Origin: a virus
Lineage: Duplodnaviria > Caudoviricetes
DNA length: 60,954 nucleotides
Virus record (IMG/VR): IMGVR_UViG_3300017776_000012
Coordinates: 1 to 60,954 of that record
Direction: 5' to 3' (one strand)
Every line of letters starts with the position of its first letter. The first letter of the stretch is position 1. The position numbers and the translations under genes were made by a program. Below, one piece after another: positions 6,101 to 56,086 of the stretch. Under the pieces are notes generated by a model that did no database searches, was not told the DNA's origin, and was given only the letters and a program-made list of their open reading frames with translations.

Positions 6101-9100
6101 TTAATGCGATTAGCAATCTGCTCCCGCTTGGTCATATTACCCATATATTTAATATCGTAAATACCTCCAGCAAAAGCTTTACCCTGATCTACATGCTTTG
6201 CATACCAGTCTGAATGAGACAGTGCTCCTTCAGCATCAGGGTTGTTAGCATAAAGCTCTACAAGCTCAAGATCTTCTCTGGCTTCAGCCTTGCTAGTCTT
6301 AAAGGTTGCATCAGATTCTTCTACAAACTGAACGGGATCCAGAATAACTCTTCTACTTTTCTCACCCTTATGGTCCATCTCCTTAGTATGAGGAGCCACA
6401 AACCGGGTACGCCAGTCCATTAAGTTATTGATATAGATAGCATCATCTGTATTCTCTAAAGCTCTTGAAGGACTCATGCCACCAGCATCTTGACCAGTCA
6501 TCTTAAGAATATGCTTAACACTGGGGTCATCTCTAGCTACAGTAAATGCAGTTCTATTTAAAGCCTGTGTTGTACGATCAAAGAAGGTAAACTTAGATCC
6601 CGTAATAAGACTTTCAAGCTCTTTAATCTTAGGACCATCTTTACTTTCTCTTGCTTTCTGTAATTCATCAATAACAGTAAGCTCTTGCATAAACCTAAGA
6701 CGAGCGATATCCATTGCATCGTCCATAGTTTCGGGGCTTTTGGCTTTCTGTAATTTTTCGCCTACACCCGGAATAGTGCCAACTAGATCAAACTCTTTTT
6801 TACGGAGCATAGATGTTGCAAAAGCTTCAATTTGTAAAGCTCTAAAAATCACATCTACTTCTTTTGCCATAGTAGCTTTATTTTTATTGGCTAGCTTGGC
6901 AAGCTTAGTAGCGTGATCCAGCATAACCTTAATGCCATCAGGGGAATTCCACTCCAGCTTATCATCCAAGATTGCTTTAGGAAGTAAACTATTTCTTAAA
7001 CCATCAGGATCTAAAACAGCTTTCATTCTTCCTGCAGAATCTGGAATACCAGTAGCCTTTTCAACTAATCCCATTAAGGCTCTATCTTTACCGCCAAGCA
7101 TAGCAGTAGTTAATTCTTCAACAACTTGATCGTAGGTAACACCTTCTTTTTTAGCCTGAGCTAACATTGCATTTTTGTACATTGCATTATCAGGATCATC
7201 AAAGAAAGATCTAATTGAGTTTTTAACTGCTTTTCTCTTAGCGTTATAAGGAACAATCATTAAGGGCTTTTTAGCAAAGCTTCGTCCAGCTTTACTCCCT
7301 CTTACCCAGAATGGACGCTCAGTATCAGCATTATTCATTGCATATAAAGCTCGGCGTACACCTATGCTCATGCTGCTATCTCCTGCCTTATCGGGCAGCT
7401 CTGCACCAATCTCATAAGTTAAGTTCTGATAAAAGTCGATATCAGTTGAACCATCTGCTTCCACTAGATCCTTAACTAATTGTAATGCTCCTTCAGCAAC
7501 TTCAGGCTTATCAGAATTTAAAGCTTCAAATAATTGGACTCTTCGTCGGAAAGCGATACTTTCGGCAACACCGTGCTTAGAGCCATTGGTAGATCCATCA
7601 GCCTGTGCAATAAGTCGAGAGCCTTTACCCTTAGAACCCTTAGCTGCCTTAGCTACATCGTCTCCTCTTTCAAAGGCTCTTAAGATCTCAGGAGTCATTT
7701 CGGGATACAACCAAGCAGACGCATCTAAGATTGCATGGGCAATGCTATAGTTATTGTCTGGGTCTGCAAGAGGGATAGCAACAGGGAACCCACCGCTAGG
7801 ATCTGCTTCAGCCCAAGGGTTATCTCTGCCTTCTTCAATGTCATACCTGAAGTATGCTCTTGTGTTGATATCTTCCATGCGAATGCCAAACTGTCCGGGC
7901 AAGGCTTTAAGATCATCATGAATAAAGCTATAATGAGTTGGAGGTAAATCCAACATTTGTTCTACAGTTCGATCAAGGTAAAACTCAATACTCTCTACTC
8001 TATCTAAATCTGTTCTTAGTGGAGGAGGAATCTGATCAGCATGGATAGTTAAGGAAGCTCTATCTTGGGCTGTAGACATATTTTGAGTGAGATTACCATC
8101 TTGAATAAACTTAATAACGTCCTCTTCAGAAGGACCCTTAGGATCATCAAAGTCTAGTTCATTGATTCTACGGACTTTATCCTCATAGATAATCTGATCT
8201 AAAATCTTAGCAATTTGCTTATCAGTTCCGGGTTGAACCGCAGAGAAATCTTTTACTTCTTCACTATTTTTAAACTTAATGACATTAAAAGAATTAGTGT
8301 CTTCATCAAGCTCAATAACCTCAGTATTGTATCGCTTACTGCCATCTACATTATCTCTAAACAAAGAGCGAAGGGCAGCTGCCATTGTATCTGGAGTTTG
8401 GAAATCTAACTCACCATTGCCAAAGATTGCAAGTGCTTTAACGCCTTTTGCTTTTAACTCTGGGCTTATTGGCAGATAGGGAATTACTTCAGCTTCAATA
8501 TACTCAATTGCATTCTTAGTATTTAATAAAGAGCTTCTTGAGAGGTTATCTCCCTTACGGCTACTGAGAGTAATTAAACTTTCTACAAGTTTATTGACAT
8601 AATCTTCTTCATTTGCAGCACCTCTAACTTCAGTACCAGCTTTATTCTTAGCTTCCTGAGCTTCTTGTTTTCTTAACTCAGTCAATAACTGAGATTGCTC
8701 AAGACGTACTTGTTGCGGAGTCTTGCTTGCAGCTGTAGCAGCAGAACTTTGCTCTATTGCCATGTCACGTTGCAGTCCAGCTCTTTTGGCTCTTAACTTG
8801 TCTAATGCTTCCACTTCTTTATTTAGAAGATCTTTAACAGTTTCAAGAGTTTCGCCTTCTTGTAAAGGTTCTTTACCAGAAGCTCTTTTAGTTAAAGATT
8901 CTATTCTATCTTTAGATTTAGCAACACTAGCATTAATTATGGTATACCTTGCAGTGTACTCCTCATTCAGATCTTCTGCTAACTGACGAGTTTTCACATA
9001 TTGAATACCTAAGTCTCTTCTTCGTTCTAAGATCTGAAGAACTTGTTCTAAATTAAAAGTATCAAATTCTCTAGTCGTTCCTTGAGATGCTAACGCTTGT

Positions 9101-42342: not shown

Positions 42343-44826
42343 TCACGAAAAAAAGTATTCTGATGTTAACACATCATGAATATCTAAAGAACTCTTAGAA
42401 GGCGGATGAATTGTACAAGATTCCCAGTCATGTGTACCTGTTTTCTTTGCAGTAGTTTCTGCCAGTACAATAGCTGGGTTGTAATTATCATACATCTCTA
42501 CAAACGATTCCCTAATGTGCTTGTGCATCTTAGGTACATCGTTCGCATGACATCCAAATGAGTCATGAATCATAGAGAAAGAATCAATACCATCATTATA
42601 CATTCTATTAATGGTATCAAGCATATGGCTTGCATCAAGCGAATGAATAAAATTAGGGGCAATACCTGAAGTCATTTCAGATGTGCTTAACTTCGCGTCT
42701 TTCTCTGCAGGAATGGAAAAGACAACCAACTGAGCATCAACACGCAATCGAACCTTACGGTCTTCATAGTAATTGTGTTTAATGGTATTCCCAATTGGAG
42801 TCTCCCACTCTAGATAGTCATCAACCTTGTTTACCTGCTTAGCCAACTCCTTAGCCCATGCCATAAACTGGTAAGAGGCTGAGACTACTGAGGGAATAGC
42901 CTCGTTCATAAGAACAGTACCAATGTACTTAGCTGCCAATCCCTTCTTCTCCCCAGCCCAATCACAATGACCGTCTTCCTTTAAAGCTCTTACGCAACCA
43001 TGCAACGTTACACCATAGGCGTAAGTCATGCAAGGTCGCTTGGCGCACTTCCTGCTTACTCTTTCTTCTCTCCACGCTGAATGCCACTCGTCTTCTACCT
43101 TTGTAGATAGATACTTATTAGCAGCATCTGCAACCTCTGTATAGAGGTCACATGGTTCAGAAACAGGAATTAAATTTGTAGCTCTAGCTCCAACAGGATC
43201 TCTACCGATAGCTGACCAATGCTGGATACCATTACACGATCCATCCATTTGTACAGCAACGTAGTTCAATCCAGATTCATTATAATAATCTAACAATGAA
43301 GCTAACAATTGCCACTTCTTACGATCATCTCCTTGCTTTGCCCAGAATGTATTGTCAATGGGGTCTGCAGCAGAGGCTTTAAGATAGGCCTCGTTCTTGT
43401 TAAACCATTGTACACGCTCATCAAAAGAGAGTTTATCCTCGCCACACAAGTTAGCGATCTGGACCTTCATCCAGTATCGACCTTCTTGGGTGTAGGGCTT
43501 ACCCTCGGCAAAGCAACATAAAGCCTTGTCAAAGTCGGAGCCTTGAGGGCTAAGCATTTCTGTAGCAGTATAACATCTACCTCTAAAATCTACAGTGATT
43601 GGAAGATAGAATTGTTTAAAGTTAGCAAGATCCTTAGCCAAATCAAGGCGTTGAATCATACGTAACCTATCTGCCCAGAGCTTTGCCCACTCCTTGTGAG
43701 CGTTCTCTAACTGAGACAGGTGTTGAGCAAACTCTACAGTATACTTACCGTCTTCGTCTTTTGGTTCACCTTCGTAGTCTTGGAAAACAAAGTTGTCCTG
43801 AGAGTATCTAGGACAATCTGCTAGTTCTAAGTTACTGGTAAACACATGCTTCATGACTTCTAAGACATCAGCATTTACTTTATACTTGGTATTCTGCAAA
43901 GAGTTGATAGCCCGTACACTGGCATGAGACATTTGAGATAGACCAAATGAGTCATACCCCGGAGATGCAGGTCTGACGAACTTCATCTGCATGCCTGGAA
44001 CAATGTAGCCCCCCTCCCATCGACCATTCTTTTTGGTCCAAGGGTTAGGAGTGCAAATCATTGGAGCCCATTTGGGTCTTAACCATTGTCTGAATTTATG
44101 ATTATCTACCATATCAGAAACAATGTTAGGATTGACCTCAATGTATGAGGTTCGCTTCCTGCCGTCCCAATGCAAGATACGTTGAGCAAAGTAATTGCCC
44201 TCTCGTATGTCTTCATCTTTGACAGCATTGACGATACATTGCAACAAGGCTACACCAAACTGAAGCTTAACCTTCTTGGGCATAAAAGCCATAGTTGAAA
44301 CTTCTTTGATAAACCTATTGCGTTTCTTAGCAGTCCAGTTTTTAATAATTTTAGATCTATATCCCCAAATCTCTTTATGCTCGTCTCTTGCCTTGATGTA
44401 GTGCAAAAGCTGCCATGTCTGCTCAGCAATGTTTTGGGCTACAGTCTGTAGCTTAATACGATTACCTAACACAGAGACACCATGATCTCGTTTAGGGTAA
44501 GCAGAAGGGATGAGGCACTTAAAGGTGATAAGTGCTAAGTGTTCAGGGGTTAAGAATAAGGCTGGTACTTGCCAGCTAGTAAACTGTCGCATGCCTTCTA
44601 AGATGCTTACTTGCATCTCTTTAAAGGCTGGAATAAAGTAAGGACCATAATAATGAATGATCTCTTCTTCGGTAGTACGAAGCACTGAAGGGTCTTGAGA
44701 GATAGCTAATTCAGCTTCAGAAGCCGTAGACTCAAGGCCAGTAGTGCCCCAATACCTACGTAAGCCAGCTAATAGCATGTCTTCTTCTCTAGCTATTTCT
44801 AGTCCAATTAAGTATGTGTTATCCAA
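42343..44826 (-). CDS. T7-like single-subunit DNA-directed RNA polymerase (full length)
   Basis: PMICTPNPW...GGY, DFRGR, LSPQG, DGSCNGIQH, RKCAKRPCMTYAYG, WETPIG, PNFIHSLD, IHDSFG, C-terminal YFFS. Confidence 0.97.
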   Translation of the reverse strand: MDNTYLIGLEIAREEDMLLAGLRRYWGTTGLESTASEAELAISQDPSVLRTTEEEIIHYYGPYFIPAFKEMQVSILEGMRQFTSWQVPALFLTPEHLALITFKCLIPSAYPKRDHGVSVLGNRIKLQTVAQNIAEQTWQLLHYIKARDEHKEIWGYRSKIIKNWTAKKRNRFIKEVSTMAFMPKKVKLQFGVALLQCIVNAVKDEDIREGNYFAQRILHWDGRKRTSYIEVNPNIVSDMVDNHKFRQWLRPKWAPMICTPNPWTKKNGRWEGGYIVPGMQMKFVRPASPGYDSFGLSQMSHASVRAINSLQNTKYKVNADVLEVMKHVFTSNLELADCPRYSQDNFVFQDYEGEPKDEDGKYTVEFAQHLSQLENAHKEWAKLWADRLRMIQRLDLAKDLANFKQFYLPITVDFRGRCYTATEMLSPQGSDFDKALCCFAEGKPYTQEGRYWMKVQIANLCGEDKLSFDERVQWFNKNEAYLKASAADPIDNTFWAKQGDDRKKWQLLASLLDYYNESGLNYVAVQMDGSCNGIQHWSAIGRDPVGARATNLIPVSEPCDLYTEVADAANKYLSTKVEDEWHSAWREERVSRKCAKRPCMTYAYGVTLHGCVRALKEDGHCDWAGEKKGLAAKYIGTVLMNEAIPSVVSASYQFMAWAKELAKQVNKVDDYLEWETPIGNTIKHNYYEDRKVRLRVDAQLVVFSIPAEKDAKLSTSEMTSGIAPNFIHSLDASHMLDTINRMYNDGIDSFSMIHDSFGCHANDVPKMHKHIRESFVEMYDNYNPAIVLAETTAKKTGTHDWESCTIHPPSKSSLDIHDVLTSEYFFS

Positions 44827-44884
44827 TTATGATTCCTATGTATACCTAAGTTCCTTGCGACTGTAGTTGATACTAAGTGGTTAG

Positions 44885-44957
44885 TAGTCCCGATGGGATT
44901 CGAACCCATACTGGGAGGATTTTAAGTCCTCTGCCTCTGCCATTGGGCTACGGGACC
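44885..44957 (-). tRNA. tRNA-Leu(UAA), short variable loop
   Basis: Cloverleaf: GGTCCCG acceptor, GAGGA-CTTAAAA-TCCTC anticodon arm, GTTCGAATC T loop, discriminator A; no encoded CCA. Confidence 0.85.
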
Positions 44958-44962
44958 TGAAA

Positions 44963-45036
44963 CGCTCTCGGCAAGACTCGAACTTGCAACCTACTGCTTA
45001 GAAGGCAGTTGCTCTATCCAATTGAGCTACGAAAGC
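44963..45036 (-). tRNA. tRNA-Arg(UCU)
   Basis: GCTTTCG acceptor, AGCTCAATTGGATAGAGC D arm, ACTGC-CTTCTAA-GCAGT anticodon arm, GTTCGAGTC. Confidence 0.92.
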
Positions 45037-45045
45037 TAGAATCAA

Positions 45046-45273
45046 TCACTCATTTGTTGGAGCGGTTGACCATGAAACACAACACTGATTTACAAACTCA
45101 ATGTTTGGGACAGCAAACTCACGAGAGATCCATCCATCTCCCTCGCTGCGTCCGTCCATCTTAATGATGAATGCGTTTTGAATACGACGCACTGTAAAAT
45201 CATCATCAACAGACTTAAACTCTCCCATAAAATCTTGAACTTGCTCTAAACAACAGCTTTGGTTTTCACCCAT
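45046..45273 (-). CDS. Hypothetical protein
   Basis: 75 aa with AAGGA RBS. Confidence 0.6.
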   Translation of the reverse strand: MGENQSCCLEQVQDFMGEFKSVDDDFTVRRIQNAFIIKMDGRSEGDGWISREFAVPNIEFVNQCCVSWSTAPTNE

Positions 45274-45291
45274 AGTATTATTTCCTTGTAT

Positions 45292-45714
45292 TTAAACGAA
45301 GTACTCTTTAAGATCATCTGAAAGGGCATACCCGCATCCACAGCGGACCCAGATCCAAGTACCGTCATCTATCTCAATTATAGCATCTCTAGTTAAAGGG
45401 TGTGCTAACATTTTCTCAGCTAAATAAGAAGAAATAAGAAAATATTGCATAGGCTCAAAGTAATCGTCATCTTCAAGTTCAGGGTAATGGATTGTAACCC
45501 AAGGAACATCATCTTTCATCAGGTACTCACCAATAAGATTTGCACGGCAGTACACCTCTTGGTCTACCCGTTTTAGAAGCTGAGCCTCTTCATAACTATT
45601 CATTATCATAAACTTCTTCCTCGATTTGTCGATCATACTCATCAAGGTGTTCTTGAACTGCGGATTGATCTGCTCGCATAACAGCTTCGACAAGATCTCT
45701 CCAGTATTCCTCAT
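45292..45714 (-). CDS. Hypothetical protein
   Basis: 140 aa with C-terminal WIWVRCGCGYAL. Confidence 0.65.
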   Translation of the reverse strand: MRNTGEILSKLLCEQINPQFKNTLMSMIDKSRKKFMIMNSYEEAQLLKRVDQEVYCRANLIGEYLMKDDVPWVTIHYPELEDDDYFEPMQYFLISSYLAEKMLAHPLTRDAIIEIDDGTWIWVRCGCGYALSDDLKEYFV

Positions 45715-45844
45715 AATTCACGGTTTTTATTCCTTTTTAAATATAATGCAATAAAACCTAAACTCATAAGTGATGAGTAAAGTCCTAAAGAATAGATGTG
45801 ATACTGTATTTCAGCATGATAATAAAACCAATAATACCAACTCA

Positions 45845-46060
45845 TTAGTCCTCCCTCGTCATGTCGCGCATTTTATCTTCATGTTCTTCTTTAAAGATTT
45901 TATATGTCTCATAAATGTAATGAAGACGTTCAATCATATGGGGAATATCCGTTGATCTTATTTTAGGTACAACTTCTTCGCCATAACAAAATCTAAAATC
46001 GCCACACGAACCATACTTAGCAGTTGATTCGTCCAATGTAATGTGATTAAATCGTATCAT
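45845..46060 (-). CDS. Hypothetical protein
   Basis: Likely start MIRFNH, ATGA-coupled to the upstream stop. Confidence 0.5.
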   Translation of the reverse strand: MIRFNHITLDESTAKYGSCGDFRFCYGEEVVPKIRSTDIPHMIERLHYIYETYKIFKEEHEDKMRDMTRED

Positions 46061-46485
46061 TCTTCTGGCAACCAACCTGCAATTTGCATGCCGGGTTCCT
46101 TGTAGAACCATTCATTGAAATCAATGTTCCAATCATGTTCTTTAATACGTTCTATAATCTTATCATAAATAACATAAGGCGGATTCCATGCAGTATCATA
46201 ACTACCATCAAGATGAATCCACTCGTTATCATTAAACTCTTCGGTTGATGTAGCAAGAGCGTACTCTGTCATCTCCCACTTGCAGCCCCAAGCGTCACGC
46301 TGGGCTTCAATAGTAGAGAAACCAGTTTCATCTTCTTCAAAGTTACCCATAGGCGAGATCTTTTCGTATAAAAAACGATAAGAATCTTTCTGATTAGGAT
46401 CTTCTTCACAGTATGTAGCAAGAAAGTCTTCCATATCGGATTTATTGCCACTTATACTAACATCATTTTCACACCAGTTAGGCAT
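46057..46485 (-). CDS. DUF1281/YubB ferredoxin-like domain protein
   Basis: MPNWCEN...WGCKW...YDTAWNPP...EPGM signature. Confidence 0.75.
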   Translation of the reverse strand: MPNWCENDVSISGNKSDMEDFLATYCEEDPNQKDSYRFLYEKISPMGNFEEDETGFSTIEAQRDAWGCKWEMTEYALATSTEEFNDNEWIHLDGSYDTAWNPPYVIYDKIIERIKEHDWNIDFNEWFYKEPGMQIAGWLPEE

Positions 46486-46530
46486 TTGTTCTCCATCTGC
46501 ACAATAGATTGCGCGGTTGTGGGACACAGA

Positions 46531-46977
46531 TCATTCTCCGTCAGTAGTCTTAAAGCTTTGATTGCAAGCATCTGCTTCTTGCTTTTCATGGCTTTTAAGC
46601 TGATCACGAAGATGAGTAATTACATCATTTCTTTCTTTAAGCTGACCTAGCAAGCCTTCTCGTTGGTTGACAAAACCTACAGCCATTGCAGTATGAAAAC
46701 CATCTTGACGAGAAGCGATGCAATTAATAATTCCAGTAATAAAATCATCAATCTTAGAACAACAATCTCGTTCCAGAGCTTCATTAACCTGATCAAGAAC
46801 TGGTTCAAGATCTACATGTGCAGCAATGTCACATGAAAGATCTTCTACAATACTATTACGAAGATCGTATTCACGATTGTCAAAGACATCTTCAGCAATA
46901 GTTTCAACATCCATTTGATCTTTAATTTTATCTACAAGATAATCAACTTCATAGTCATCAAACTCAACACTAGCCAT
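46531..46977 (-). CDS. Hypothetical acidic protein
   Basis: Start MASVEFDD with AAGGAG RBS. Confidence 0.65.
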   Translation of the reverse strand: MASVEFDDYEVDYLVDKIKDQMDVETIAEDVFDNREYDLRNSIVEDLSCDIAAHVDLEPVLDQVNEALERDCCSKIDDFITGIINCIASRQDGFHTAMAVGFVNQREGLLGQLKERNDVITHLRDQLKSHEKQEADACNQSFKTTDGE

Positions 46978-47251
46978 CGTGATTCTCCTTGTTAATTTCA
47001 AAGGTTTTAAAAGTTTTAGAGAAATCTAAAACAACATCATTTAAATCTTTATCTGAATTCTCTGTCCACTCACCGCCCCAGTCAAGAACTGTACCGTTCT
47101 CGTTGCAATGAAAGATCATAGTTTCAGGTTTATTGGTATCAAAAGCAAGAACCTTACTACAGAAAAAGTATTGTCCGTTAATAAGGTGTACTTCCTGCTG
47201 AATAGATCCCTCTTTAGTACACTCATAACAAAATGTATTGTGAGCAATCAT
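46970..47251 (-). CDS. Hypothetical protein
   Basis: 93 aa, ETMIF motif, coupled to neighbours. Confidence 0.6.
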   Translation of the reverse strand: MIAHNTFCYECTKEGSIQQEVHLINGQYFFCSKVLAFDTNKPETMIFHCNENGTVLDWGGEWTENSDKDLNDVVLDFSKTFKTFEINKENHDG

Positions 47252-47373
47252 CTTAGTTTAGCTCCATTGCCGGATCTGCTTGTCTTAGCTTTCCCGCGTT
47301 CTTTTGGGCCTAGCTTTGAGCGTCGAGGTTTTCCGGGTTTTACAGAACCAATAGATTTATTTTGTTTAGCCAT
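47248..47373 (-). CDS. Small basic peptide (not in ORF track)
   Basis: MAKQNKSIGSVKPGKPRRSKLGPKERGK..., coupled at both ends. Confidence 0.5.
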   Translation of the reverse strand: MAKQNKSIGSVKPGKPRRSKLGPKERGKAKTSRSGNGAKLR

Positions 47374-47561
47374 TAAAAGAAATCCTTGTATCTAGGGTGA
47401 TGCTTTAAGTCAGTCCATCTTTTCTTATCTACAATTCTTGGAACTCTTTTGCCTGTTAGGCGAGCTTTCTGTTTTGTAGTAGCAAAGTCTCTAGCTAGGT
47501 GATCAAGTCGTGCCATACGAATCATTTCACCTAAAGAAAAGTCCGAGTTTTCTTCGGTCAT
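47373..47561 (-). CDS. Hypothetical protein
   Basis: 62 aa with AAGGA RBS. Confidence 0.55.
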   Translation of the reverse strand: MTEENSDFSLGEMIRMARLDHLARDFATTKQKARLTGKRVPRIVDKKRWTDLKHHPRYKDFF

Positions 47562-47670
47562 TTAGCTATCCTTATCTTCTTCAAACACTACTAAAGATGA
47601 GTCATTAGTTACATCGTCCCAAGGTGGTTCGATATAATAATCCTCACATTGAATATCATCCAACGGTAAA

Positions 47671-47847
47671 TTAGGCTTCGGGGTCAAAGTCATACCATTC
47701 TGTCAGCCAGTCGGGCTGCCCTTCTTCGTCGTCGAGATGATTATAATACCACTGTGTGGCCTCTTCGTCTACGTCTCCTTCGAGATCATAGACTTCTTCG
47801 TTCTTTTCCTCGTTGTCTTCAGGATCAGGATCACATGTACAAATCAT
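47671..47847 (-). CDS. Small highly acidic protein
   Basis: Start MICTCD with GGAGG RBS; Asp/Glu- and aromatic-rich. Confidence 0.6.
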   Translation of the reverse strand: MICTCDPDPEDNEEKNEEVYDLEGDVDEEATQWYYNHLDDEEGQPDWLTEWYDFDPEA

Positions 47848-48220
47848 TGATATCCTCCGGTACATTAGCATCATTAATACGGGATAAAGCCATACCAATA
47901 TCTTCAACTGTAACATCAACAGTTTCACCTGTGTCATCTGTCCGGAAGAGTACGGCATTGCCTACCAAGTGTGGAAAGATCTGAGATACAAAAGCGGCAT
48001 AAAAGTTAGGAGCTTTGCCGGTAAAAAGACCTTCATCGTCCATCCACATGGTTACTGTGTCGTAATTATCGTCTTCTGGGTTATTGTTCTTAACTCCAAC
48101 AATAGTGCCGCAATCGCAATCGACTGCTGCGTTAAAATCTTTGTAGTCATTTACATTAATAACTTCAAGATTACCAGATACGGGAATAAAAAGTGCTTTA
48201 GCCATTAGTTTTACTTTCAT
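47831..48220 (-). CDS. DUF3846-like protein
   Basis: MWMDDEGL...PN..A...LVGNAVL. Confidence 0.65.
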   Translation of the reverse strand: MKVKLMAKALFIPVSGNLEVINVNDYKDFNAAVDCDCGTIVGVKNNNPEDDNYDTVTMWMDDEGLFTGKAPNFYAAFVSQIFPHLVGNAVLFRTDDTGETVDVTVEDIGMALSRINDANVPEDINDLYM

Positions 48221-48230
48221 TCTGGAAAAG

Positions 48231-48242
48231 CTAGTCTCTAGT
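48231..48242 (-). promoter_or_regulatory. Candidate phage promoter motif ACTAGAGACTAG
   Basis: 1-mismatch copy of the 27031/52893 motif, just downstream of a strong terminator. Confidence 0.45.
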
Positions 48243-48286
48243 GATAGTGACTAGAAAAATGTAGATATACATTATCTCTACATATG

Positions 48287-48341
48287 AAAAAAAAAATGGG
48301 CTATCCTAGGATAATTCCTAGGACAGCCCATATACGAAGTT
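48287..48341 (-). terminator. Strong intrinsic terminator ending the short-RNAP operon
   Basis: Minus RNA AUGGGCUGUCCUAGGA-AUUA-UCCUAGGAUAGCCCAU followed by a long U run. Confidence 0.9.
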
Positions 48342-48347
48342 AAATTA

Positions 48348-48533
48348 TTAGTTTACGATATTTGAGATAAACTCATTATCGTTTGCATTCTGTTCTTTGG
48401 CTTCAATAGCATCGAGACGATCTTGAGCCATCTTACGCTTTTCTTCACTAGTATTGATCATAGCGACAATATTAGTCAAGATCACTTTACCTTCAGAACC
48501 TTCCAAATGATTATAGTTTTTAGGTTGTGCCAT
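48348..48533 (-). CDS. Hypothetical protein
   Basis: Start MAQPKNY with AAGGA RBS. Confidence 0.55.
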   Translation of the reverse strand: MAQPKNYNHLEGSEGKVILTNIVAMINTSEEKRKMAQDRLDAIEAKEQNANDNEFISNIVN

Positions 48534-48555
48534 TTTCTTTCCTTTATAGTTTATG

Positions 48556-48620
48556 ACAAACAAATAAACAAACAAACAAAACGATCGGGACACCGATCTG
48601 TCGAGCGAAGCGAGTGGGGA
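48556..48620. other. Candidate replication origin / ssDNA initiation element
   Basis: (AAAC)n-like tract, GATCGG-GACA-CCGATC hairpin, CGAGCGAAGCGAGT. Confidence 0.35.
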
Positions 48621-48632
48621 CAAGGTGTAATG

Positions 48633-50558
48633 TTAGGATATAAGAGATATTGACATATCATTAATATCCCATGAACCTTTATTCGGTATCGATTTAGTTG
48701 GAAGTCCATCAAGTTCATTGAATGATAATTCCATATGAGTATCAATCATGCCTTGACGTACAATTTCTTTGATTTTAATACAATCTATAATTCTTGTACC
48801 CCATGAATCATGAATAGGAGATACAGGAATATTTTCTTTAAACGCTAAACTACATGAATATAACATTACTGCTGCATCAATAGAGTGAATTCTGTTAGGA
48901 CTTTGGCCTGCGGTACTTGCTACATTTTGCAAGACTTCAGAGATGCCTCTACTTTTGCTGTATGGTACAGTAAAGTTAATATCTTTTTCTAGTGTTACTG
49001 CTTTTTGATTGAAACAGAACATACCAATAGGTGATTTCCATTGAACACTTCTGTTATGAAGATTAAATGTCTTTTGAGACACTTGTTTCATGAAATTAAT
49101 AAATTCAGTAATAGATGGGAATAACAATTGAAGAGATCTAGAATAAGCATTTGCTAGACAAAGTAAAAGATGTCCGGGTTTAACTCCAGCTTCTCTTGCT
49201 GCTTTAACAGTTTTAGGAAATGGGATTTCATTCTTATTAATGACTTGACCCCATGTTAACTTGTCAAGTACATCAATTTCTTTCTGATCTTCTTCTAGCG
49301 TATACTTTACGTCTGCGTCATTTAGCCAGCCTCTTGCAATACCCATGATTGATGAACCATAAGCAATGATCATAACTGGTTTCTTTGCAGATTTACGAGA
49401 AGACAATTCATCATAAACTTCTTTGTTTTCAAGTAATGAAGATACATCGTACTCTTTGCCATATTCTTTGTATGTAAAGAAACGATTGTTTTCTACTGCA
49501 TGAGACGCAGTAACGCTGTACAGATCTTCATTTTTATCAATCTTAGTTCTAAGTGCCGTATGGTATGCAAGTCTAGCATCTTTCATAATACAGGCCATGT
49601 GACCCATACCTGAGCATGTAGCATCTTGTTGCATGATGTATGAAGTTTCACCATACTGCAAGCACTCGTACAATGCCAGTGCTGCCCTGTAACGACACCA
49701 TACTTTATCTTTAGATTTGTATATTTTCTTTTCAATGCCGTAATACGGATCATTTAGGATATGTGCATAGTTATCTACATTGATATTATACTCATCTTGT
49801 AAATGTTGTAAGAAGAGTTTGAAGTATGCACAACTTATATCAACTGCATAATTCTCAGCATAGTCACACAAGGCTCTGTGTATATCGCCATTCTGATATG
49901 ACAACAATGAGCCTGAATCTGTGTAAATGCGACCACGCCAGTCTAAGAAACACGGAAGATAATACTCATGTTCTTGTTCTTTTTTGGCATATTCAATACA
50001 ATAACTCTCAATGTGTTGATCATCTGAAAGAACAATATGTCTTTTCATAGCTTGAAGTACATGTTGATTTATTTTGTAAGGTACTTCTTGAATAGTATTA
50101 ATAGCATCTACTTGTTTCTGAGAAGCCCATGTCATAGGTCTACCACTAATTAAATAGTCTGAACTAGTGTTTGTAATTTCTAGTTTTCTTGGTTTATTTT
50201 TCAACGGTCTAATAGGTTCTAGAGCATTATCTCGATGATCATGATCAAAGAATACCTTGTTTGTTTTACCGTTAACTAGAATGATTCCATTTTCTTGCCA
50301 TGTTCCAATGAGTTTCCATAATTGGATTTGAACATGAGCACAATCATTTGGATTCTCTAGTGCTGCAATAGTAGGTGCATGCTTTCTAATCCATTCGTAT
50401 GCTTTTAGATTAAACTTATCAAAACCTCTCATTTCTCGCCAAAAGTCTACGGATAGAGGTGTTACCCACTCATCCATATAAGATGGCATATATTTAATAG
50501 ATTTAGCAGAGTCAATTAGCTTATCTAAGGTTTTGTTCAACTTTATTCCTTTTTGCAA
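48633..50558 (-). CDS. Second single-subunit RNA polymerase, short (N-terminal domain reduced)
   Basis: AINTIQEVPYKIN, LDWRGRIY, SYQNG, QQDATCSGMGH, DLY, RKSAKKPVMIIAYG, WKSPIG, PNRIHSIDA, IHDSWG. Confidence 0.93.
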   Translation of the reverse strand: MQKGIKLNKTLDKLIDSAKSIKYMPSYMDEWVTPLSVDFWREMRGFDKFNLKAYEWIRKHAPTIAALENPNDCAHVQIQLWKLIGTWQENGIILVNGKTNKVFFDHDHRDNALEPIRPLKNKPRKLEITNTSSDYLISGRPMTWASQKQVDAINTIQEVPYKINQHVLQAMKRHIVLSDDQHIESYCIEYAKKEQEHEYYLPCFLDWRGRIYTDSGSLLSYQNGDIHRALCDYAENYAVDISCAYFKLFLQHLQDEYNINVDNYAHILNDPYYGIEKKIYKSKDKVWCRYRAALALYECLQYGETSYIMQQDATCSGMGHMACIMKDARLAYHTALRTKIDKNEDLYSVTASHAVENNRFFTYKEYGKEYDVSSLLENKEVYDELSSRKSAKKPVMIIAYGSSIMGIARGWLNDADVKYTLEEDQKEIDVLDKLTWGQVINKNEIPFPKTVKAAREAGVKPGHLLLCLANAYSRSLQLLFPSITEFINFMKQVSQKTFNLHNRSVQWKSPIGMFCFNQKAVTLEKDINFTVPYSKSRGISEVLQNVASTAGQSPNRIHSIDAAVMLYSCSLAFKENIPVSPIHDSWGTRIIDCIKIKEIVRQGMIDTHMELSFNELDGLPTKSIPNKGSWDINDMSISLIS

Positions 50559-50820
50559 TAGCTTGATCAGCTTCTTTCAAAGCGTCATGGAATTTAAGAG
50601 TCTTTTTTATCTGATCAGCAATAACTTTTAAGTCTTTACCTTGACAGATAAAATCCCAAGTATCATAATTGTGATTCAATGCATCTTTGTTTGCTTTTTC
50701 AATAGCTCCTTCAGGATTTTCAGGGAAGTGACCTAGATATTGGAACCCTGTTTCACATTGATACACGTAATACAGGTGATCGTACTTCTTTTTAATATTT
50801 TCAATCATCATCGTCTCCAA
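50521..50820 (-). CDS. Hypothetical early protein
   Basis: 99 aa ORF tiled in the operon. Confidence 0.55.
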   Translation of the reverse strand: METMMIENIKKKYDHLYYVYQCETGFQYLGHFPENPEGAIEKANKDALNHNYDTWDFICQGKDLKVIADQIKKTLKFHDALKEADQAIAKRNKVEQNLR

Positions 50821-51037
50821 ATGTTTGTTTCCATCCCATTGGTGAGATGCCTGAAATTAGAAATTCTCTAGTTTCTGCCGATTCATTAGGAAGATAATCT
50901 TGAATCATCTTACTTGGATCTTTTTGATCAATATATTCTTGGATTACATTTGGTACTTGTACTTCAAAGTACTCCTCTGTAACAACACACGTTCCTTCAA
51001 TAAGGTAATCTCCGTTTTCCAATTGGATTACGGCCAT
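50801..51037 (-). CDS. Hypothetical early protein
   Basis: Start MAVIQL (GGAGG RBS); IQDYLP...REFLISGI...W pattern. Confidence 0.65.
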   Translation of the reverse strand: MAVIQLENGDYLIEGTCVVTEEYFEVQVPNVIQEYIDQKDPSKMIQDYLPNESAETREFLISGISPMGWKQTFGDDDD

Positions 51038-51056
51038 ATTACCTCCTAACAGTCCA

Positions 51057-51278
51057 TTAAGTGCTCTGTCCAATTTGAATCTCCATGTTTTTGATCATTG
51101 TGAAAAGAGTTTCATACGCTTTCAAATCATTGTAGGCTTTATCAGCTTCTTCATTACCACTTAGTGCAAGGTTAGTAACACGTGATAAAGCTGATTCCCA
51201 GTAATGGTTTTTAAGTTCAACAAGATCGTCCTTAGAAGGATCTTGTTTACTCTGGAGGGTTTTTACATTTACTAGCAT
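51057..51278 (-). CDS. Hypothetical early protein
   Basis: 73 aa with GAGGA RBS. Confidence 0.55.
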   Translation of the reverse strand: MLVNVKTLQSKQDPSKDDLVELKNHYWESALSRVTNLALSGNEEADKAYNDLKAYETLFTMIKNMEIQIGQST

Positions 51279-51528
51279 AATTTAATTCCTCTACATAAGC
51301 CATAATAACTTCGTCTTTTGCTAGACGACGTTTCATTTTAGTTTCGGCAACAGTTATAATTCTACGAATTTTGTCATAACTTAAAGGATCATCTGGATGA
51401 AGGGCATTCCAAGCAGCATGAATTTCAACTGCTTGGGCTACGGGCTTATTCCAGACAGATCTACTCCAGTTTTCTTTTTCTTTAGACATATCTAAAGCTG
51501 AATGTGGTTCATTATTTGAGATCGACAT
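51247..51528 (-). CDS. Hypothetical early protein, possible HTH
   Basis: LSYDKIRRIITVAETKMKR loosely resembles a sigma region-4-type HTH. Confidence 0.45.
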   Translation of the reverse strand: MSISNNEPHSALDMSKEKENWSRSVWNKPVAQAVEIHAAWNALHPDDPLSYDKIRRIITVAETKMKRRLAKDEVIMAYVEELNYASKCKNPPE

Positions 51529-52009
51529 AACCTACATGCTCCTTAATATGGTCTTCGATAGTATTGACAAGTCCATACATGTCACCAAAATCAGTAGTTC
51601 CATATTTATGACGAATTAAATGAAGAATAGAACACAAGAATCCTGTACTTTTACGAGCTTCATTACGCTCATTTTGATACATATCTTTTGTATAATTCAG
51701 GCACTTGTTAAGTTCTTTAATTTCAGTTTGCTGTTTGTAATGAGAGTCTCGACAATTCGCAAGTTTCTCATTCAACTTATTAGACCAATCTCGTGCTTTC
51801 TGAAGTTCTTTTTCATGGATGGATTTGGCTACTGTATCGTCAGATTTTAAGTCTTCGTTTTCTTCAGATGCAGTATGATATCGTTTCTTTAATTCAGTAA
51901 ACGATTTATAGGCGTTCTTGATTCTTCGAGCATCTTCTTCAATCTTTTCTTGTAAAGATTCAATAAGTTTTTCTCGTTCATCATTAACAAACTCTTCGTT
52001 ATTAGTCAT
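51512..52009 (-). CDS. Coiled-coil early protein
   Basis: Start MTNNEE (AAGGAG RBS); long heptad repeat. Confidence 0.65.
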   Translation of the reverse strand: MTNNEEFVNDEREKLIESLQEKIEEDARRIKNAYKSFTELKKRYHTASEENEDLKSDDTVAKSIHEKELQKARDWSNKLNEKLANCRDSHYKQQTEIKELNKCLNYTKDMYQNERNEARKSTGFLCSILHLIRHKYGTTDFGDMYGLVNTIEDHIKEHVGYVDLK

Positions 52010-52413
52010 AAGTTCTCCTTTACTTTGTTCCAATGTGGCAGAGTACAAGACTTCTTGTGTCCATTAGGGCCACCATTATGCATCCTAGAAACATGCTCTT
52101 GGGTAGGTTCACATCCAAGTCTACGAGCATTGCAGTATCTTGCCATATAGGCCCGTACAATACGCTCTGCGTACTTAGGATTGAAACAATCCTCATATAC
52201 CCCTCCAATACTTGGATCGTATTCTACGGCATCCTGCCAATAACTACGGTGAATCTGATAAATGCCAATTGCATCTCCTCCATCGCCAATGGCATCTGGA
52301 TTATTGTTTGACTCTACTACGCGAATAGCAGCAAGAACCTCAGTCATCTCTTGTTCAGAGATTGACCAAGATTGAGATGTCATGACACACATTAAGATAA
52401 TAATACGAAACAT
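52006..52413 (-). CDS. Invertebrate-type (destabilase-like) lysozyme with signal peptide
   Basis: IRVVES...GIYQIHRSYWQDA...AYMARY...RMHNGGPNG...WNKV; hydrophobic N-terminus. Confidence 0.8.
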   Translation of the reverse strand: MFRIIILMCVMTSQSWSISEQEMTEVLAAIRVVESNNNPDAIGDGGDAIGIYQIHRSYWQDAVEYDPSIGGVYEDCFNPKYAERIVRAYMARYCNARRLGCEPTQEHVSRMHNGGPNGHKKSCTLPHWNKVKENL

Positions 52414-52427
52414 AATTTAAATCTCCT

Positions 52428-52507
52428 ACCTAGGTTTCCTAGGTTATAAAGGTATATAGTATTATCCTTAGGACAACCTAGGTCTTAGGTCCCTATAGAT
52501 AATACTA
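52428..52507. repeat. CCTAGG-rich overlapping inverted repeats
   Basis: CCTAGG at 52429, 52438 and 52477, plus variants; TAGTATTATC/GATAATACTA pair at 52457/52498. Confidence 0.7.
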
Positions 52508-52508
52508 A

Positions 52509-52868
52509 CTAGTTTTCATCCATTTCTAGGATGGTTAAGATTTGATTCAATTGTTTACTAGTAGCAGTTGTTTCAATGAGCCTTGAGATTTTATTCCTTT
52601 GCAGTTCTTGAGCATCAGCAATAGAATTTAGAAACTCATTCATATATTCCTTGATGTGTTCAATTTCTTCTTCATACATCTTGATTTGTTCTAGGAAATA
52701 ACTATGGCTAAATTCTTGATCTATGGTATCGTGAGAAGGAATGTCACCTGTAATTGAGGAGTTTGTATTGTGTGTTAAGGAAAATGTCCAATCTGCCTTA
52801 ATGAATCGATGAATCTTACAATCCAGTTTATTGGTCAAGTGATTACGATTAAAGTAAATTCTATCCAT
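52509..52868 (-). CDS. Hypothetical early protein
   Basis: 119 aa with AAGGA RBS. Confidence 0.6.
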   Translation of the reverse strand: MDRIYFNRNHLTNKLDCKIHRFIKADWTFSLTHNTNSSITGDIPSHDTIDQEFSHSYFLEQIKMYEEEIEHIKEYMNEFLNSIADAQELQRNKISRLIETTATSKQLNQILTILEMDEN

Positions 52869-52892
52869 AATTTTACAATCCTTTCGAATTTG

Positions 52893-52904
52893 CTAGTTTC
52901 TAGT
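52893..52904 (-). promoter_or_regulatory. Candidate phage promoter motif ACTAGAAACTAG
   Basis: Identical to 27031-27042; lies between a terminator and the next RBS. Confidence 0.5.
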
Positions 52905-52916
52905 GGCAATACAACG

Positions 52917-52953
52917 TGAAAGCCCCGGACACGTGATAGTGTGCCCGGGGCTT
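52917..52953 (-). terminator. Intrinsic terminator
   Basis: Minus RNA AAGCCCCGGGCAC...GUGUCCGGGGCUU followed by a short U tract. Confidence 0.7.
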
Positions 52954-52963
52954 CCGTCGTTAG

Positions 52964-53011
52964 TTACCCTTGTTCTTCACGTTGGGTAATGTATTCTTCT
53001 AAATCGTCCAT
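52964..53011 (-). CDS. Possible 15 aa micropeptide MDDLEEYITQREEQG
   Basis: TAAGGAG RBS overlapping the upstream stop. Confidence 0.35.
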   Translation of the reverse strand: MDDLEEYITQREEQG

Positions 53012-53021
53012 GTGACTCTCC

Positions 53022-53726
53022 TTAGATTGCGAGTTCTTCACTTGCAGCCTTGACATTTTCCTCTTGAGGTTCAAGCATTTGCTCTTCCTCACTTGGAATG
53101 TTCATGTCAATCTTGAATGAGGGATCAAAGGGATTGATTGCATTCTGCCGACAGTAGGCAAGGTGCTCTTGGAAATTCTCAGACCAGCAGGCCTTGCGAG
53201 GAGCACCTTTGATCCCACGACTGGCAATTGTTTTTTCGTGTCCCTTTAGAATTCGATTTTGATCTGTGGTTCGCTGAGCTTCTGGCAATGCCTTGATCTC
53301 TGCGAGTCCTTCAAGACTGAACCAAGTTGTCAATCCACGGGACCAATTAACTGGTTTCTTTTCCATTTGCATGGTATCAGGATTGAGCTCTTGTCCGCCA
53401 TCTACGAACTGGTAGATGGTTCTTGTTGTTCCAGTCTCCAAGGTTTCGTTAAGAATGACAGGGAATCCATCCTCATTCAATTGAACTTCAGGGATGATTC
53501 CAGCAATGTATGATCGTCCTTTGTCATGCTTATCCCACTTGAGGGTCATGATGTCTCCACGCTGAGGAGCCTGAAGGCCTTGGTTTTGAGGACTGCTCAT
53601 CCAGAGGGCTGTGATTCGCTTGAAAGAATAGTATCGATCAAAAGCATTGGCATGATCTTCGCTAAGGGTTTCACGGTATGTTTTTTGAGCGTTCTTGTAG
53701 TTTGCAATTTGAGGAATCTCGTTCAT
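53022..53726 (-). CDS. Hypothetical early protein with acidic tail
   Basis: 234 aa, GGAG RBS, bracketed by a hairpin element and a terminator. Confidence 0.75.
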   Translation of the reverse strand: MNEIPQIANYKNAQKTYRETLSEDHANAFDRYYSFKRITALWMSSPQNQGLQAPQRGDIMTLKWDKHDKGRSYIAGIIPEVQLNEDGFPVILNETLETGTTRTIYQFVDGGQELNPDTMQMEKKPVNWSRGLTTWFSLEGLAEIKALPEAQRTTDQNRILKGHEKTIASRGIKGAPRKACWSENFQEHLAYCRQNAINPFDPSFKIDMNIPSEEEQMLEPQEENVKAASEELAI

Positions 53727-53792
53727 TGTAATTCTCCATTAGAATTGATAAAAGCAGGTCAGACACACAACGTGTCCAACCACATGGATGCA

Positions 53793-53806
53793 CGCCCGCA
53801 AGGGCG
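53793..53806 (-). promoter_or_regulatory. Candidate hairpin promoter (CGCCC-GCAA-GGGCG on the template strand), copy 2
   Basis: Identical 14-mer at 54820; 67 nt upstream of an early ATG; no U tract. Confidence 0.55.
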
Positions 53807-53930
53807 TATCCGTAGTCTCGGAAGATGTCAAACGTGCAACCAGTGCTCGTCGTAAAGGTCAGTCGTAGTAGTAGTCGCTAGTCTCGCGTAAGCGTAAGCC
53901 ACTATCACGCTGTCGTGCCTAGTGCAGGGC

Positions 53931-53957
53931 AAAAAAAGAAAGCCCCCGAAGGGGCTT
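53931..53957 (-). terminator. Intrinsic terminator
   Basis: AAGCCCC-TTCG-GGGGCTT followed by TCTTTTTTT. Confidence 0.9.
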
Positions 53958-53960
53958 AAT

Positions 53961-54050
53961 TTATTTCGCTGCTTTCTTTCGAGCCTGAGCCTTCTTGATT
54001 ACAGCCTTCAATGGATTACTTAATAACACTTTAAACTGATTGTGAGTCAT
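53961..54050 (-). CDS. Small basic peptide (not in ORF track)
   Basis: MTHNQFKVLLSNPLKAVIKKAQARKKAAK; AAGGAG RBS; ATGA coupling. Confidence 0.5.
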   Translation of the reverse strand: MTHNQFKVLLSNPLKAVIKKAQARKKAAK

Positions 54051-54403
54051 ACTAACTCTCCTTTTTCATACATTGTGATCAGCTTTTGAGCATGGTTCCC
54101 GATCTTGAGATTGTTGTCGTACTCCTGCCGAGCTTGTCTTCGGATCTCTTGCTCTTCTGGAGTAGGATCCTCATGCACATCGCATGAGATACGATCCTGC
54201 ACCACGTCATTAATCCAATCTATTTGGACAAGAGTAGCATCATCCAATCTCTTGTTCAAGTTCTTCCATTGTCTAGCCTCTCGCTCATCGTGACGAGTTC
54301 GAGTAGAGATGCCGGTCTTGCTTCGCTGATTTCTTCGGATATGCCGAGCATGCTCCAGTTCTCGCTTTGCAATAGTCTTTGTCATGTAAGTATGATTACG
54401 CAT
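54047..54403 (-). CDS. Hypothetical early protein
   Basis: Start MRNHTY with AAGGAG RBS. Confidence 0.65.
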   Translation of the reverse strand: MRNHTYMTKTIAKRELEHARHIRRNQRSKTGISTRTRHDEREARQWKNLNKRLDDATLVQIDWINDVVQDRISCDVHEDPTPEEQEIRRQARQEYDNNLKIGNHAQKLITMYEKGELV

Positions 54404-54425
54404 TGTAAATCTCCTTGATTGAATA

Positions 54426-54749
54426 TTAACCGTTGTAAGTACCAAACTCATTCTCGTACTCTCCGATGAGCACAAGTCTTCTTGAGCAGTCTTCTTCTCT
54501 CTCAATCATCTTGCGAAGATCCCGCTCAGCTTCCTTAAATTCAGCCTTCATAAAGCATTTGAAACAGAGGCCATCAGCATCACAGTGTGTACCCTCTGGA
54601 GCTACGTCCTCAGACGAACCACACCAAGCACACAGCCCGTTCTCGTGACGGTACTCCAAGAGCTGATCCTCAGTCATGTAGCCAGTATTGACCACATCCT
54701 TAGGAACAGGACGGAAGAAGGCAAGAAACAGTTCAAATAGTTTACGCAT
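54426..54749 (-). CDS. First early gene, CxxC...CxxC zinc-binding protein
   Basis: CAWC...CFKC; AAGGAG RBS. Confidence 0.7.
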   Translation of the reverse strand: MRKLFELFLAFFRPVPKDVVNTGYMTEDQLLEYRHENGLCAWCGSSEDVAPEGTHCDADGLCFKCFMKAEFKEAERDLRKMIEREEDCSRRLVLIGEYENEFGTYNG

Positions 54750-54819
54750 GGTAGTATCTCCTTGACATGCATTAACAGACAGGATGTGTTACACTCTGCA
54801 ACACAATCATAAAAGGGCC

Positions 54820-54833
54820 CGCCCGCAAGGGCG
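54820..54833 (-). promoter_or_regulatory. Candidate hairpin promoter (CGCCC-GCAA-GGGCG), copy 1
   Basis: 71 nt upstream of the first early ATG; preceded by AAAA on the template strand. Confidence 0.5.
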
Positions 54834-54941
54834 GCCTGTGACGCACAAATTTCGGGGGGTGATGGGGGTCCAAATAATTACCATACTGCAGGGGGACCCC
54901 TCTTGAATACGCGACCCCATTTTAGGATGGGGCCCTAGGAC

Positions 54942-56070: not shown

Positions 56071-56086
56071 GTCAATATTCCTTTTC

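Follow-up and report, generated by a model that had tools for sequence, protein, structure and literature searches.

The viral record IMGVR_UViG_3300017776_000012, analysed here over its entire length of 60,954 bases (hereafter the window), is a complete IMG/VR virus representing an uncultured marine T7-like phage. Besides a canonical T7-like RNA polymerase (RNAP) of 827 amino acids (aa), it encodes a second, considerably shorter single-subunit RNAP of 635 aa. The short protein appears to be an active, minimal, single-chain RNAP of the T7 family that is made early and probably serves as a factor-assisted early or middle transcriptase; we put the probability of this reading at roughly one half, and it is from sequence that we infer the activity, timing, targets and need for a cofactor. 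In such a scheme the short RNAP would be made first, from an AT-rich leftmost operon bounded by terminator hairpins, and would transcribe the next block, which holds the canonical 827-aa RNAP and the replication genes, with promoter opening probably aided by one or more phage or host factors; the 827-aa enzyme would then take over the late genes. As judged from its sequence and gene context, the short protein corresponds to the "additional RNAP" found in a lineage of marine T7-like podoviruses with large genomes (54-70 kb).

The coding sequence (CDS) of the short RNAP and its principal elements are located as follows, where residue numbers of the protein (P0001) count from the TTG codon at 50558.

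48633..50540, minus strand: short single-subunit RNA polymerase CDS, 635 aa from TTG 50540, assigned by Pfam, PHROGs and homologue alignment
49929..49943, minus strand: DWRGR (T/DxxGR motif), aa 206-210, aligned to T7 D421-R425 and invariant in 12/12 family members
49608..49625, minus strand: motif A DATCSG, aa 312-317, with D312 aligned to T7 D537
49356..49397, minus strand: motif B, aa 388-401, with R388, K392, Y400 and G401 corresponding to T7 R627, K631, Y639 and G640
48915..49007, minus strand: beta-hairpin, aa 518-548, aligned to the T7 specificity loop 739-770
48798..48812, minus strand: motif C HDSWG, aa 583-587, with H583 and D584 corresponding to T7 H811 and D812

The open frame extends over 48633-50558 on the minus strand and amounts to 641 aa when counted from the first TTG (50558). 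Translation probably starts at the TTG at 50540, which gives the 635 aa: the first residue of the 11 homologues aligns with residue 7, and this codon is preceded at 6 nt by AGGA, a ribosome-binding site. The protein matches Pfam PF00940 over residues 261-616 with 103.7 bits against a cut-off of 22, whereas Pfam gives no RPOL_N (PF14700) match for it, unlike for the 827-aa protein. Among the PHROGs the short RNAP matches phrog_414 at 1.7e-51 and N4-type families at 1e-14 and 1.7e-12, and in a profile search of the PDB the T7 and mitochondrial RNAPs are the only matches (E 1.3e-25).

The catalytic motifs are clearly retained. In a six-row alignment that includes T7 RNAP, the equivalents of T7 D421, R423, G424, R425, Y427, D537, R627, K631, Y639, G640, H784, H811 and D812 are all invariant, and the corresponding residues D206, R208, G209, R210, Y212, D312, R388, K392, Y400, G401, H558, H583 and D584 are likewise found in 12/12 family members; motif B reads RKSAKK...YGS at positions 388-402. 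A first-pass annotation made from the sequence alone had described these motifs as intact, with DWRGR near residue 205 as opposed to about 413 in the 827-aa enzyme, a motif A of DATCSG instead of DGSCNG, and an AT-rich gene. Each of these observations is borne out: the DWRGR begins at residue 206 and the DFRGR of the 827-aa enzyme occupies residues 413-417, motif A is found at residue 312 versus residue 528, and the GC content of the short-RNAP gene is 34.3%, compared to 41.9% in the 827-aa gene and 40.6% in the whole record. The tip of the specificity-loop-like hairpin has a low model confidence and varies in length within the family.

The family consists of 12 members of 625-663 aa that are 33-88% identical, and the 11 homologues are all single chains; in a library clustered at 50% identity it corresponds to three full-length representatives and two fragments. 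Beyond the family, the profile score falls from 930 to 258 bits, and what follows is a diverse and numerous collection of RNAPs of 470-630 aa. Compared to the orthologue in the relative G001, which is 89% identical, the gene has a ratio of nonsynonymous to synonymous substitution rates (dN/dS) of 0.11 over 635 codons and, by this measure, is under purifying selection. It is scarcely credible that the gene is a remnant without activity, or that it arose recently as a truncated copy of the 827-aa RNAP gene: the shorter length and AT-rich composition are all that speak for it, while the catalytic residues are invariant in 12/12 members, dN/dS is 0.11, the two RNAPs of this genome share 22% identity, and the family forms a clade with 100% support that a branch supported at 96% separates from the clade of the 827-aa enzyme.

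The latter values derive from a quick IQ-TREE phylogeny of the C-terminal part equivalent to the N4 protein gp16, which was built from the last 460 residues of 109 sequences with 374/1199 columns kept. Along with the 12 family members, the rows comprised 56 other proteins of 440-700 aa, 6 N4-type large subunits, 24/71 proteins of 780-900 aa (every third), 9/17 proteins of at least 950 aa (every second), T7 RNAP and the 827-aa enzyme; fragments below 440 aa and proteins of other lengths were excluded. The deepest split, with 96% support in the Shimodaira-Hasegawa-like approximate likelihood ratio test (SH-aLRT), separates the T7-like and mitochondrial-type enzymes (46 rows) from the short rows, the family and N4 RNAPII (63 rows). 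The two RNAPs of the window therefore lie on opposite sides of this split, which, together with their 22% identity, excludes the recent truncated duplication that the first-pass annotation had named as the finding that would overturn its view.

With respect to N4, the same phylogeny gives a divided answer. N4 RNAPII forms a clade with a 581-aa single-chain protein, P0070, at 99% SH-aLRT, and in the free tree the short-RNAP family is placed beside 25 other short RNAPs (88% SH-aLRT), outside the N4 clade. Forcing the family together with the N4 clade nevertheless yields a tree that exceeds the free quick tree by 24.9 log-likelihood units (p-AU 0.78 in the approximately unbiased test); these sequences hence do not reject a placement of the family as sister to N4 RNAPII, although long branches may attract each other. 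The comparison with N4 that the first-pass annotation had proposed thus places the family on the same side of the deep split and allows a sister relationship, which the free tree itself does not recover. As a separate observation, the metagenomic single-chain P0070, which groups as sister to the N4-type gp16 clade, could represent a naturally unsplit form related to N4 RNAPII.

The small size of the enzyme can be traced to two regions. In an alignment with T7 RNAP, the motifs are offset by about 207 aa relative to the 827-aa enzyme, of which about 150 aa correspond to the region of T7 residues 1-199, that is, the N-terminal domain, and about 50 aa to a shortened thumb, where the 86 residues of T7 326-411 face 36 aligned residues. 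The first-pass annotation had ascribed some 200 missing residues to the N-terminal domain, which is correct for the larger part, while the remainder belongs to the thumb. The AT-rich recognition loop of T7 (93-101) has zero aligned residues in the short RNAP, a hairpin at residues 93-104 lies opposite the T7 intercalating hairpin, and a family-specific insert of about 60 aa is present in the fingers at residues ~415-480. An AlphaFold2 (AF2) model of the protein (pLDDT 81.6, pTM 0.80) displays the right-hand fold of Pol A-type RNAPs and superimposes onto T7 RNAP with a Z score of 31.8 and a root-mean-square deviation (rmsd) of 4.1 over 448 aligned residues; the Z scores are 30.1 with the yeast mitochondrial RNAP and 17.9 with the N4 mini-vRNAP. 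According to the alignment and the model, the architecture is that of a whole catalytic palm and fingers with a specificity-loop hairpin, combined with a short N-terminal domain and a short thumb. In the wide fold search, residues ~5-117 of the model additionally matched a series of winged-helix DNA-binding domains in a consistent pattern, although the Z scores of 5-6 are too low to constitute a finding.

Lacking the AT-rich loop and most of the N-terminal domain and of the thumb, the enzyme would probably need help in opening promoters and be less processive. N4 RNAPII is described, in the accessible text of PMC4496689, as an enzyme with a truncated thumb and N-terminal domain and a minimal size of ~670 aa that binds only single-stranded DNA in vitro and requires gp2 and probably gp1. 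The first-pass annotation had likened the short RNAP to a fused form of this two-subunit enzyme, and several alignments are consistent with that. In a profile-profile comparison (hhalign) of the short-RNAP and gp15 families, residues 147-240 of P0001 align with gp15 158-269 (probability 61%, E 8e-5), and the shared "IQxTxYxIN" helix is preceded by ~146 residues in the short RNAP and ~157 in gp15. By BLASTP, gp15 residues 224-269 match P0001 194-240 in the DxxGR block only (E 5e-4) and gp16 matches the motif A block only (E 0.004), with DATSSG in gp16 and DATCSG in the short RNAP. In a fold search of 48,161 PDB representatives, residues 4-404 of gp16 (6dt7_B) superpose on residues 243-641 of the model (Z 12.7, rmsd 3.2, 287 aligned residues, 17% identity); in a narrower fold search N4 RNAPII was not among the 50 matches listed. 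Since the profile, BLASTP and fold alignments all meet there, the gp15/gp16 boundary falls at about residue 241-243 of the continuous chain. The likeness to a fused N4 RNAPII therefore holds for the architecture, the boundary and the gp16 fold, but overall the sequence and fold of the short RNAP are nearer to the T7 and mitochondrial RNAPs than to N4 RNAPII, and no gp1 or gp2 homologues were found (see below). No split relatives were found, as the search for shorter forms gave a single match, a 235-aa fragment.

The genomic position of the gene provides the basis for the proposed timing. The features of the early region are as follows.

52918..52955, minus strand: terminator-like hairpin just upstream of the short-RNAP operon
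52006-52413, minus strand: 135-aa Destabilase/SLT lysozyme-like protein with a hydrophobic N-terminus, in the early operon
48296..48331, minus strand: strong intrinsic-terminator-like hairpin with a 16-bp stem and T10, which closes the operon and is identical in the relative G001
46057-46527, minus strand: 156-aa open reading frame (ORF) of no assigned function, 74-77% identical in L030, L032, L033 and L034
44884-45036, minus strand: adjacent tRNA-Leu(TAA) and tRNA-Arg(TCT), directly upstream of the 827-aa RNAP gene
42343..44826, minus strand: canonical T7-like RNAP of 827 aa with PF00940 and RPOL_N, 5.7 kb downstream of the short RNAP on the same strand

The short RNAP lies within a block of nine ORFs that runs from 52868 down to 48348 with 34-35% GC, and shares with a 91-aa ORF the operon that is closed by the hairpin at 48296..48331; terminator-like sites number 15 in the sequence observed and 7.4 +/- 2.8 in shuffles. 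The enzyme is thus encoded in the AT-rich, leftmost and, by inference, early operon. The operon is followed by further small ORFs, tRNA-Arg(TCT) and tRNA-Leu(TAA), and then by the 827-aa RNAP. The tRNA-Arg is similar to tRNAs of cyanophages and a roseophage, with 85-95% identity over ~60 nt. Homologues of the lysozyme-like protein (41-49% identity) are found within 1-2 kb of the short RNAP in G002, L023 and L024 and are better conserved than the RNAP; this conserved 135-aa neighbour was considered as a candidate cofactor and rejected given its identity as a Destabilase/SLT lysozyme-like protein.

The arrangement of the two polymerase genes is evidently conserved. A short RNAP and a long one (~809-850 aa) occur together in all seven near-complete (at least 90%) viral records, namely the window, G002 and G003-G007, and in each of them the long-RNAP gene is on the same strand, 6-11 kb downstream of the short one (5.7 kb in the window). 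Among six fragments four show both genes, and G008 and G009 only the short one. As the records were found via searches for short RNAPs, the count shows that short enzymes are accompanied by long ones and not the reverse. The short RNAP of G002 is 35% identical to P0001 with the same gene order, and this order is also present in 5/5 near-complete genomes (54-70 kb) from two other short-RNAP groups with proteins of 477-497 aa and 572-622 aa. A role as a middle polymerase would fit this gene position.

The same region also bears on the notion that the short RNAP is an alternative or back-up transcriptase which was acquired by horizontal transfer and performs the same job as the canonical enzyme in certain circumstances, for instance where the host or a defence state blocks one polymerase. 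Mosaicism is apparent in the early region, where the 156-aa ORF is 74-77% identical in phages whose short RNAPs are ~27% identical, which, judged from these sequences, points to either a recent cassette exchange or a very strong constraint. Horizontal transfer of the additional RNAP in marine Autographiviridae has also been inferred from its low identity and separate tree position, as stated in the accessible part of Commun Biol 2025;8:1240 (PMC12361551). In short-RNAP families of 480, 590 and 640 aa alike, the two polymerase genes are strictly retained together and in one order, which is hard to reconcile with a back-up, and the dN/dS of 0.11 suggests a fixed, non-redundant role, so that we regard this explanation as unlikely.

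All long ORFs of the window are on the minus strand, and PHROGs annotation of 28 of its proteins reveals a T7-type layout, in the following order of transcription.

Minus strand, part 1: small early ORFs, then the 827-aa RNAP
Minus strand, part 2: phosphoesterase, gp2.5-like single-stranded DNA-binding protein (SSB; 40767-41303, phrog_112, 3.4e-12), gp4-like primase-helicase, Pol A DNA polymerase, exonuclease
Minus strand, part 3: portal, scaffold, capsid, tail tube A and B, large terminase
Minus strand, part 4: ORFs of 346 aa and 1415 aa, and a giant ORF

This layout allows another role to be weighed, that of a dedicated replication-priming polymerase, which would make primer RNA at an origin or on single-stranded DNA instead of mRNA. 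Replication is primed by the RNAP in T7 and likewise in mitochondria. In the absence of a promoter-binding domain, a polymerase could favour DNA that is single-stranded or opened, a preference that N4 RNAPII displays in vitro according to the accessible text of PMC4496689. The phage, however, has its own gp4-like primase-helicase (phrog_239, 8.5e-162) within a full T7-like replication module, and the short RNAP is found outside that module, among small early ORFs and 5.7 kb upstream of the long RNAP. The first-pass annotation had offered a priming RNAP as its second option; the early-operon location and the presence of a primase-helicase lend it no support here, and we consider it improbable.

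Candidate regulatory signals were found at the borders of the operon and elsewhere.

52893..52904, minus strand: second exact copy of the element described in the next line, ACTAGAAACTAG, at the head of the short-RNAP operon
48231..48242, minus strand: ACTAGAGACTAG element, candidate promoter or operator, directly after the terminator and retained, with a single change, across a deletion of 29 nt in G001
27031-27042, minus strand: third exact copy, ACTAGARACTAG, just upstream of the major capsid gene
53794-53805 and 54821-54832, minus strand: GC-rich hairpin core GCCCTTGCGGGC, two copies, with 2 matches against 0.10 expected

Exactly three exact copies of ACTAGARACTAG are present, all intergenic and on the gene strand (at 52904, 48242 and 27042); allowing one mismatch raises the count to 4, where 1.04 would be expected, and 0/100 shuffles reach that number. 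In two phages whose short RNAPs are ~27% identical, a variant, ACTAGTGACTAGC, lies between genes some 800 nt past the short RNAP in the downstream direction, and elements of the form ACTAG-N2-ACTAG occur in distant phages with two RNAPs, at 4268-4279 in L003, 3064-3075 in L031 and 5114-5125 in L034. The element is always intergenic and on the gene strand, and two of the window copies come right after terminator hairpins. Based on its sequence, it may be a promoter or an operator; its near-palindromic form and conservation mean that an operator or a host-read signal fits better than a promoter specific to the short RNAP. The copies of GCCCTTGCGGGC are situated in GC-rich, structure-rich intergenic stretches upstream of the early operon and might act as promoters of the hairpin type or as terminators, close to where the genome really ends.

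In T7, a single RNAP transcribes both middle and late genes, and a reversed order of roles or a different division of labour from the one proposed could be envisaged, for example one in which the 827-aa enzyme likewise serves middle and late genes and the short enzyme a special set, such as the giant gene or the tail and late genes, or only its own early operon. The ACTAGARACTAG copies at the capsid gene and around the short-RNAP operon agree with this to the extent that one candidate signal spans the early and late regions. Yet the position of the short gene upstream of the long RNAP in 7/7 near-complete genomes fits an earlier role, and the occurrence of the nearly identical ACTAGTGACTAGC in phages with ~27%-identical short RNAPs argues against its being the short enzyme's own promoter. 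Such a division appears unlikely.

Several observations weigh against a factor-assisted early or middle transcriptase. First, the retained specificity-loop hairpin and the hairpin in the position of the intercalating hairpin could mean that the enzyme needs no cofactor. Next, the sole conserved neighbour common to the short-RNAP families is the lysozyme-like protein and not a transcription factor. When N4 gp1 and gp2 were compared by phmmer with every window ORF of 40 aa or more, the best E value exceeded 1, although sequence-unrelated analogues could escape such a search, and PHROGs revealed no transcription-cofactor family in the seven early-region ORFs of at least 150 aa (46057-58379) or in 18 smaller ORFs (40419-55205). 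Finally, genome-wide searches for direct repeats and for enriched intergenic k-mers returned only start-codon, ribosome-binding-site and terminator words and no clear promoter family for either RNAP, and a scan for sigma-70-type promoters was not enriched (31 sites against 33.8 expected) and is uninformative.

A third RNAP may be present in the giant protein encoded at the end of the transcription order, for which the following features are relevant.

12858 down through the junction to 58738 (1-12858 and 58738-60831), minus strand: giant ORF, 4983 aa when read circularly, crossing the record ends
7189..7620, minus strand: RNAP motif A-to-B region, aa 1747-1890, with DGxxNGxxH, D-F-Y and RxxxKxxxMxxxY at T7 spacing
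2098-2112, minus strand: HExxH motif (…DVILHEIAHA…), aa 3583-3587, invariant in 6/6 giants

The first 123 bases of the record are identical to the last 123, and because the giant ORF runs across the junction, this repeat stems from overlap in the assembly and does not mark a physical end; the genome measures 60,831 bp once the overlap is removed. Homologues of the giant protein have 4801-5003 aa and are found on contigs of 29-62 kb (4/5 of them on 58-62 kb), and the counterpart in G002 (4245-4253 aa) is 25-29% identical over most of its length. Residues 1808-1980 match the T7-type RNAP family phrog_414 at 1.6e-5, and the homologous or analogous giant frames of G002 (4253 aa) and G007 (5140 aa) give weak PF00940 matches of 22.3 and 15.7 bits. 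In an alignment of six giants (4286-5003 aa), D1754, G1755, N1758, G1759 and H1762 are invariant with the spacing of T7 D537...H545, as are D1808, F1809 and Y1810, and also R1859, K1863, M1867 and Y1871 with the spacing of T7 R627, K631, M635 and Y639. By hhalign, giant residues 1747-1890 correspond to T7 527-655 (probability 70%, E 4e-5). Motif C was not located in the giant protein, a PDB profile search with its RNAP region gave nothing relevant, and an AF2 prediction of residues 1380-2567 from a three-sequence alignment (pLDDT 36.8) yielded no usable fold; in the ESM Atlas, viral clusters bearing PF00940 score 0.90-0.93 for the region, which serves as a lead only. The HExxH motif suggests a zinc-metalloprotease-like site far downstream of the RNAP motifs.

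The giant gene comes after two further large ORFs and the terminase, a position at which the internal-core proteins that are ejected from the virion are encoded in T7-like phages. On the strength of the motifs and this placement, it is possible that the giant protein holds a virion-delivered RNAP module similar to the N4 vRNAP (gp50). Tentatively, a cascade of three polymerases can be imagined, in which an RNAP within the giant protein, injected like the N4 vRNAP, would read the leftmost operon, the 635-aa RNAP the middle genes and the 827-aa RNAP the late genes; we consider this doubtful, but if true, such a cascade would render the phage independent of the host RNA polymerase, and the lineage would be a living link between the transcription strategies of N4 and T7.

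Single-subunit RNAPs of phages are the mainstay of RNA synthesis in vitro and also serve as a model of how a minimal enzyme finds and opens promoters, and a minimal and a full-length RNAP in one genome provide a natural comparison of the parts needed for promoter recognition, melting and processivity. There is also a hint that the N4 scheme, with an injected giant RNAP followed by a minimal one, and the T7 scheme, with one self-sufficient RNAP, coexist in a widespread marine lineage, which would bear on the evolution of both strategies.

Compared to known systems, the short enzyme combines traits of several. Like the T7 and mitochondrial RNAPs, it keeps all of the catalytic and rNTP-selecting residues and has a specificity-loop hairpin. 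Unlike the 883-aa T7 RNAP, it is without the region of T7 residues ~1-190, the AT-rich loop and ~50 aa of the thumb, and its C-terminus ends in ...LIS where that of T7 ends in ...FAFA. Its nearest tree neighbours are other short metagenomic single-subunit RNAPs (477-632 aa), which are 24-30% identical and in some cases 150 aa shorter still. As for the phage, the 827-aa RNAP and the portal are only 27-32% identical to their Autographiviridae counterparts, so cultured relatives are distant, and megablast matches of window 42000-51000 are confined to tRNA-like stretches.

The closest described case is the marine Autographiviridae subgroup AG-10.1. In the accessible text of PMC12361551, 23 of its members carry an additional RNAP of ~650 aa with low identity to typical RNAPs, located upstream of the typical ~800-aa RNAP among small genes of no assigned function; the genomes are unusually large, every member has a gene for 3274-5566 aa, four of which carry PF00940, and the different RNAPs are suggested to serve different genes. 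Literature searches gave nothing closer. Since that report presents the same arrangement, the existence of a second RNAP is already known, and by size, position and gene content the enzyme studied here is of this reported kind: a ~650-aa RNAP upstream of a long RNAP among small ORFs, in an enlarged genome with a giant gene (4983 aa here). A difference is the gp2.5-like SSB ORF of the present phage, as AG-10.1 is stated in the same text to have no SSB gene. The accessible text contains no motif, architecture or structural analysis and no comparison with N4; new here are the architecture, the correspondence to N4 RNAPII, the conserved gene order across several short-RNAP families and the argument, made at the level of motifs, that the giant protein may contain an RNAP module.

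With N4 RNAPII the short RNAP has in common the short N-terminal domain, the truncated thumb and a motif A beginning with DAT.SG, and its 635-641 aa are comparable to the 673 aa of gp15 (269 aa) and gp16 (404 aa) together (PDB 6dt7, 6dt8, 6dta). It differs from the two-chain N4 enzyme in being a single ORF, and, unlike the schitovirus N4, the phage is T7-like and also has a full-length T7-type RNAP. Taken together, the sequence comparisons and the model partly support a view of the short RNAP as a one-chain counterpart of N4 RNAPII in its minimal architecture.

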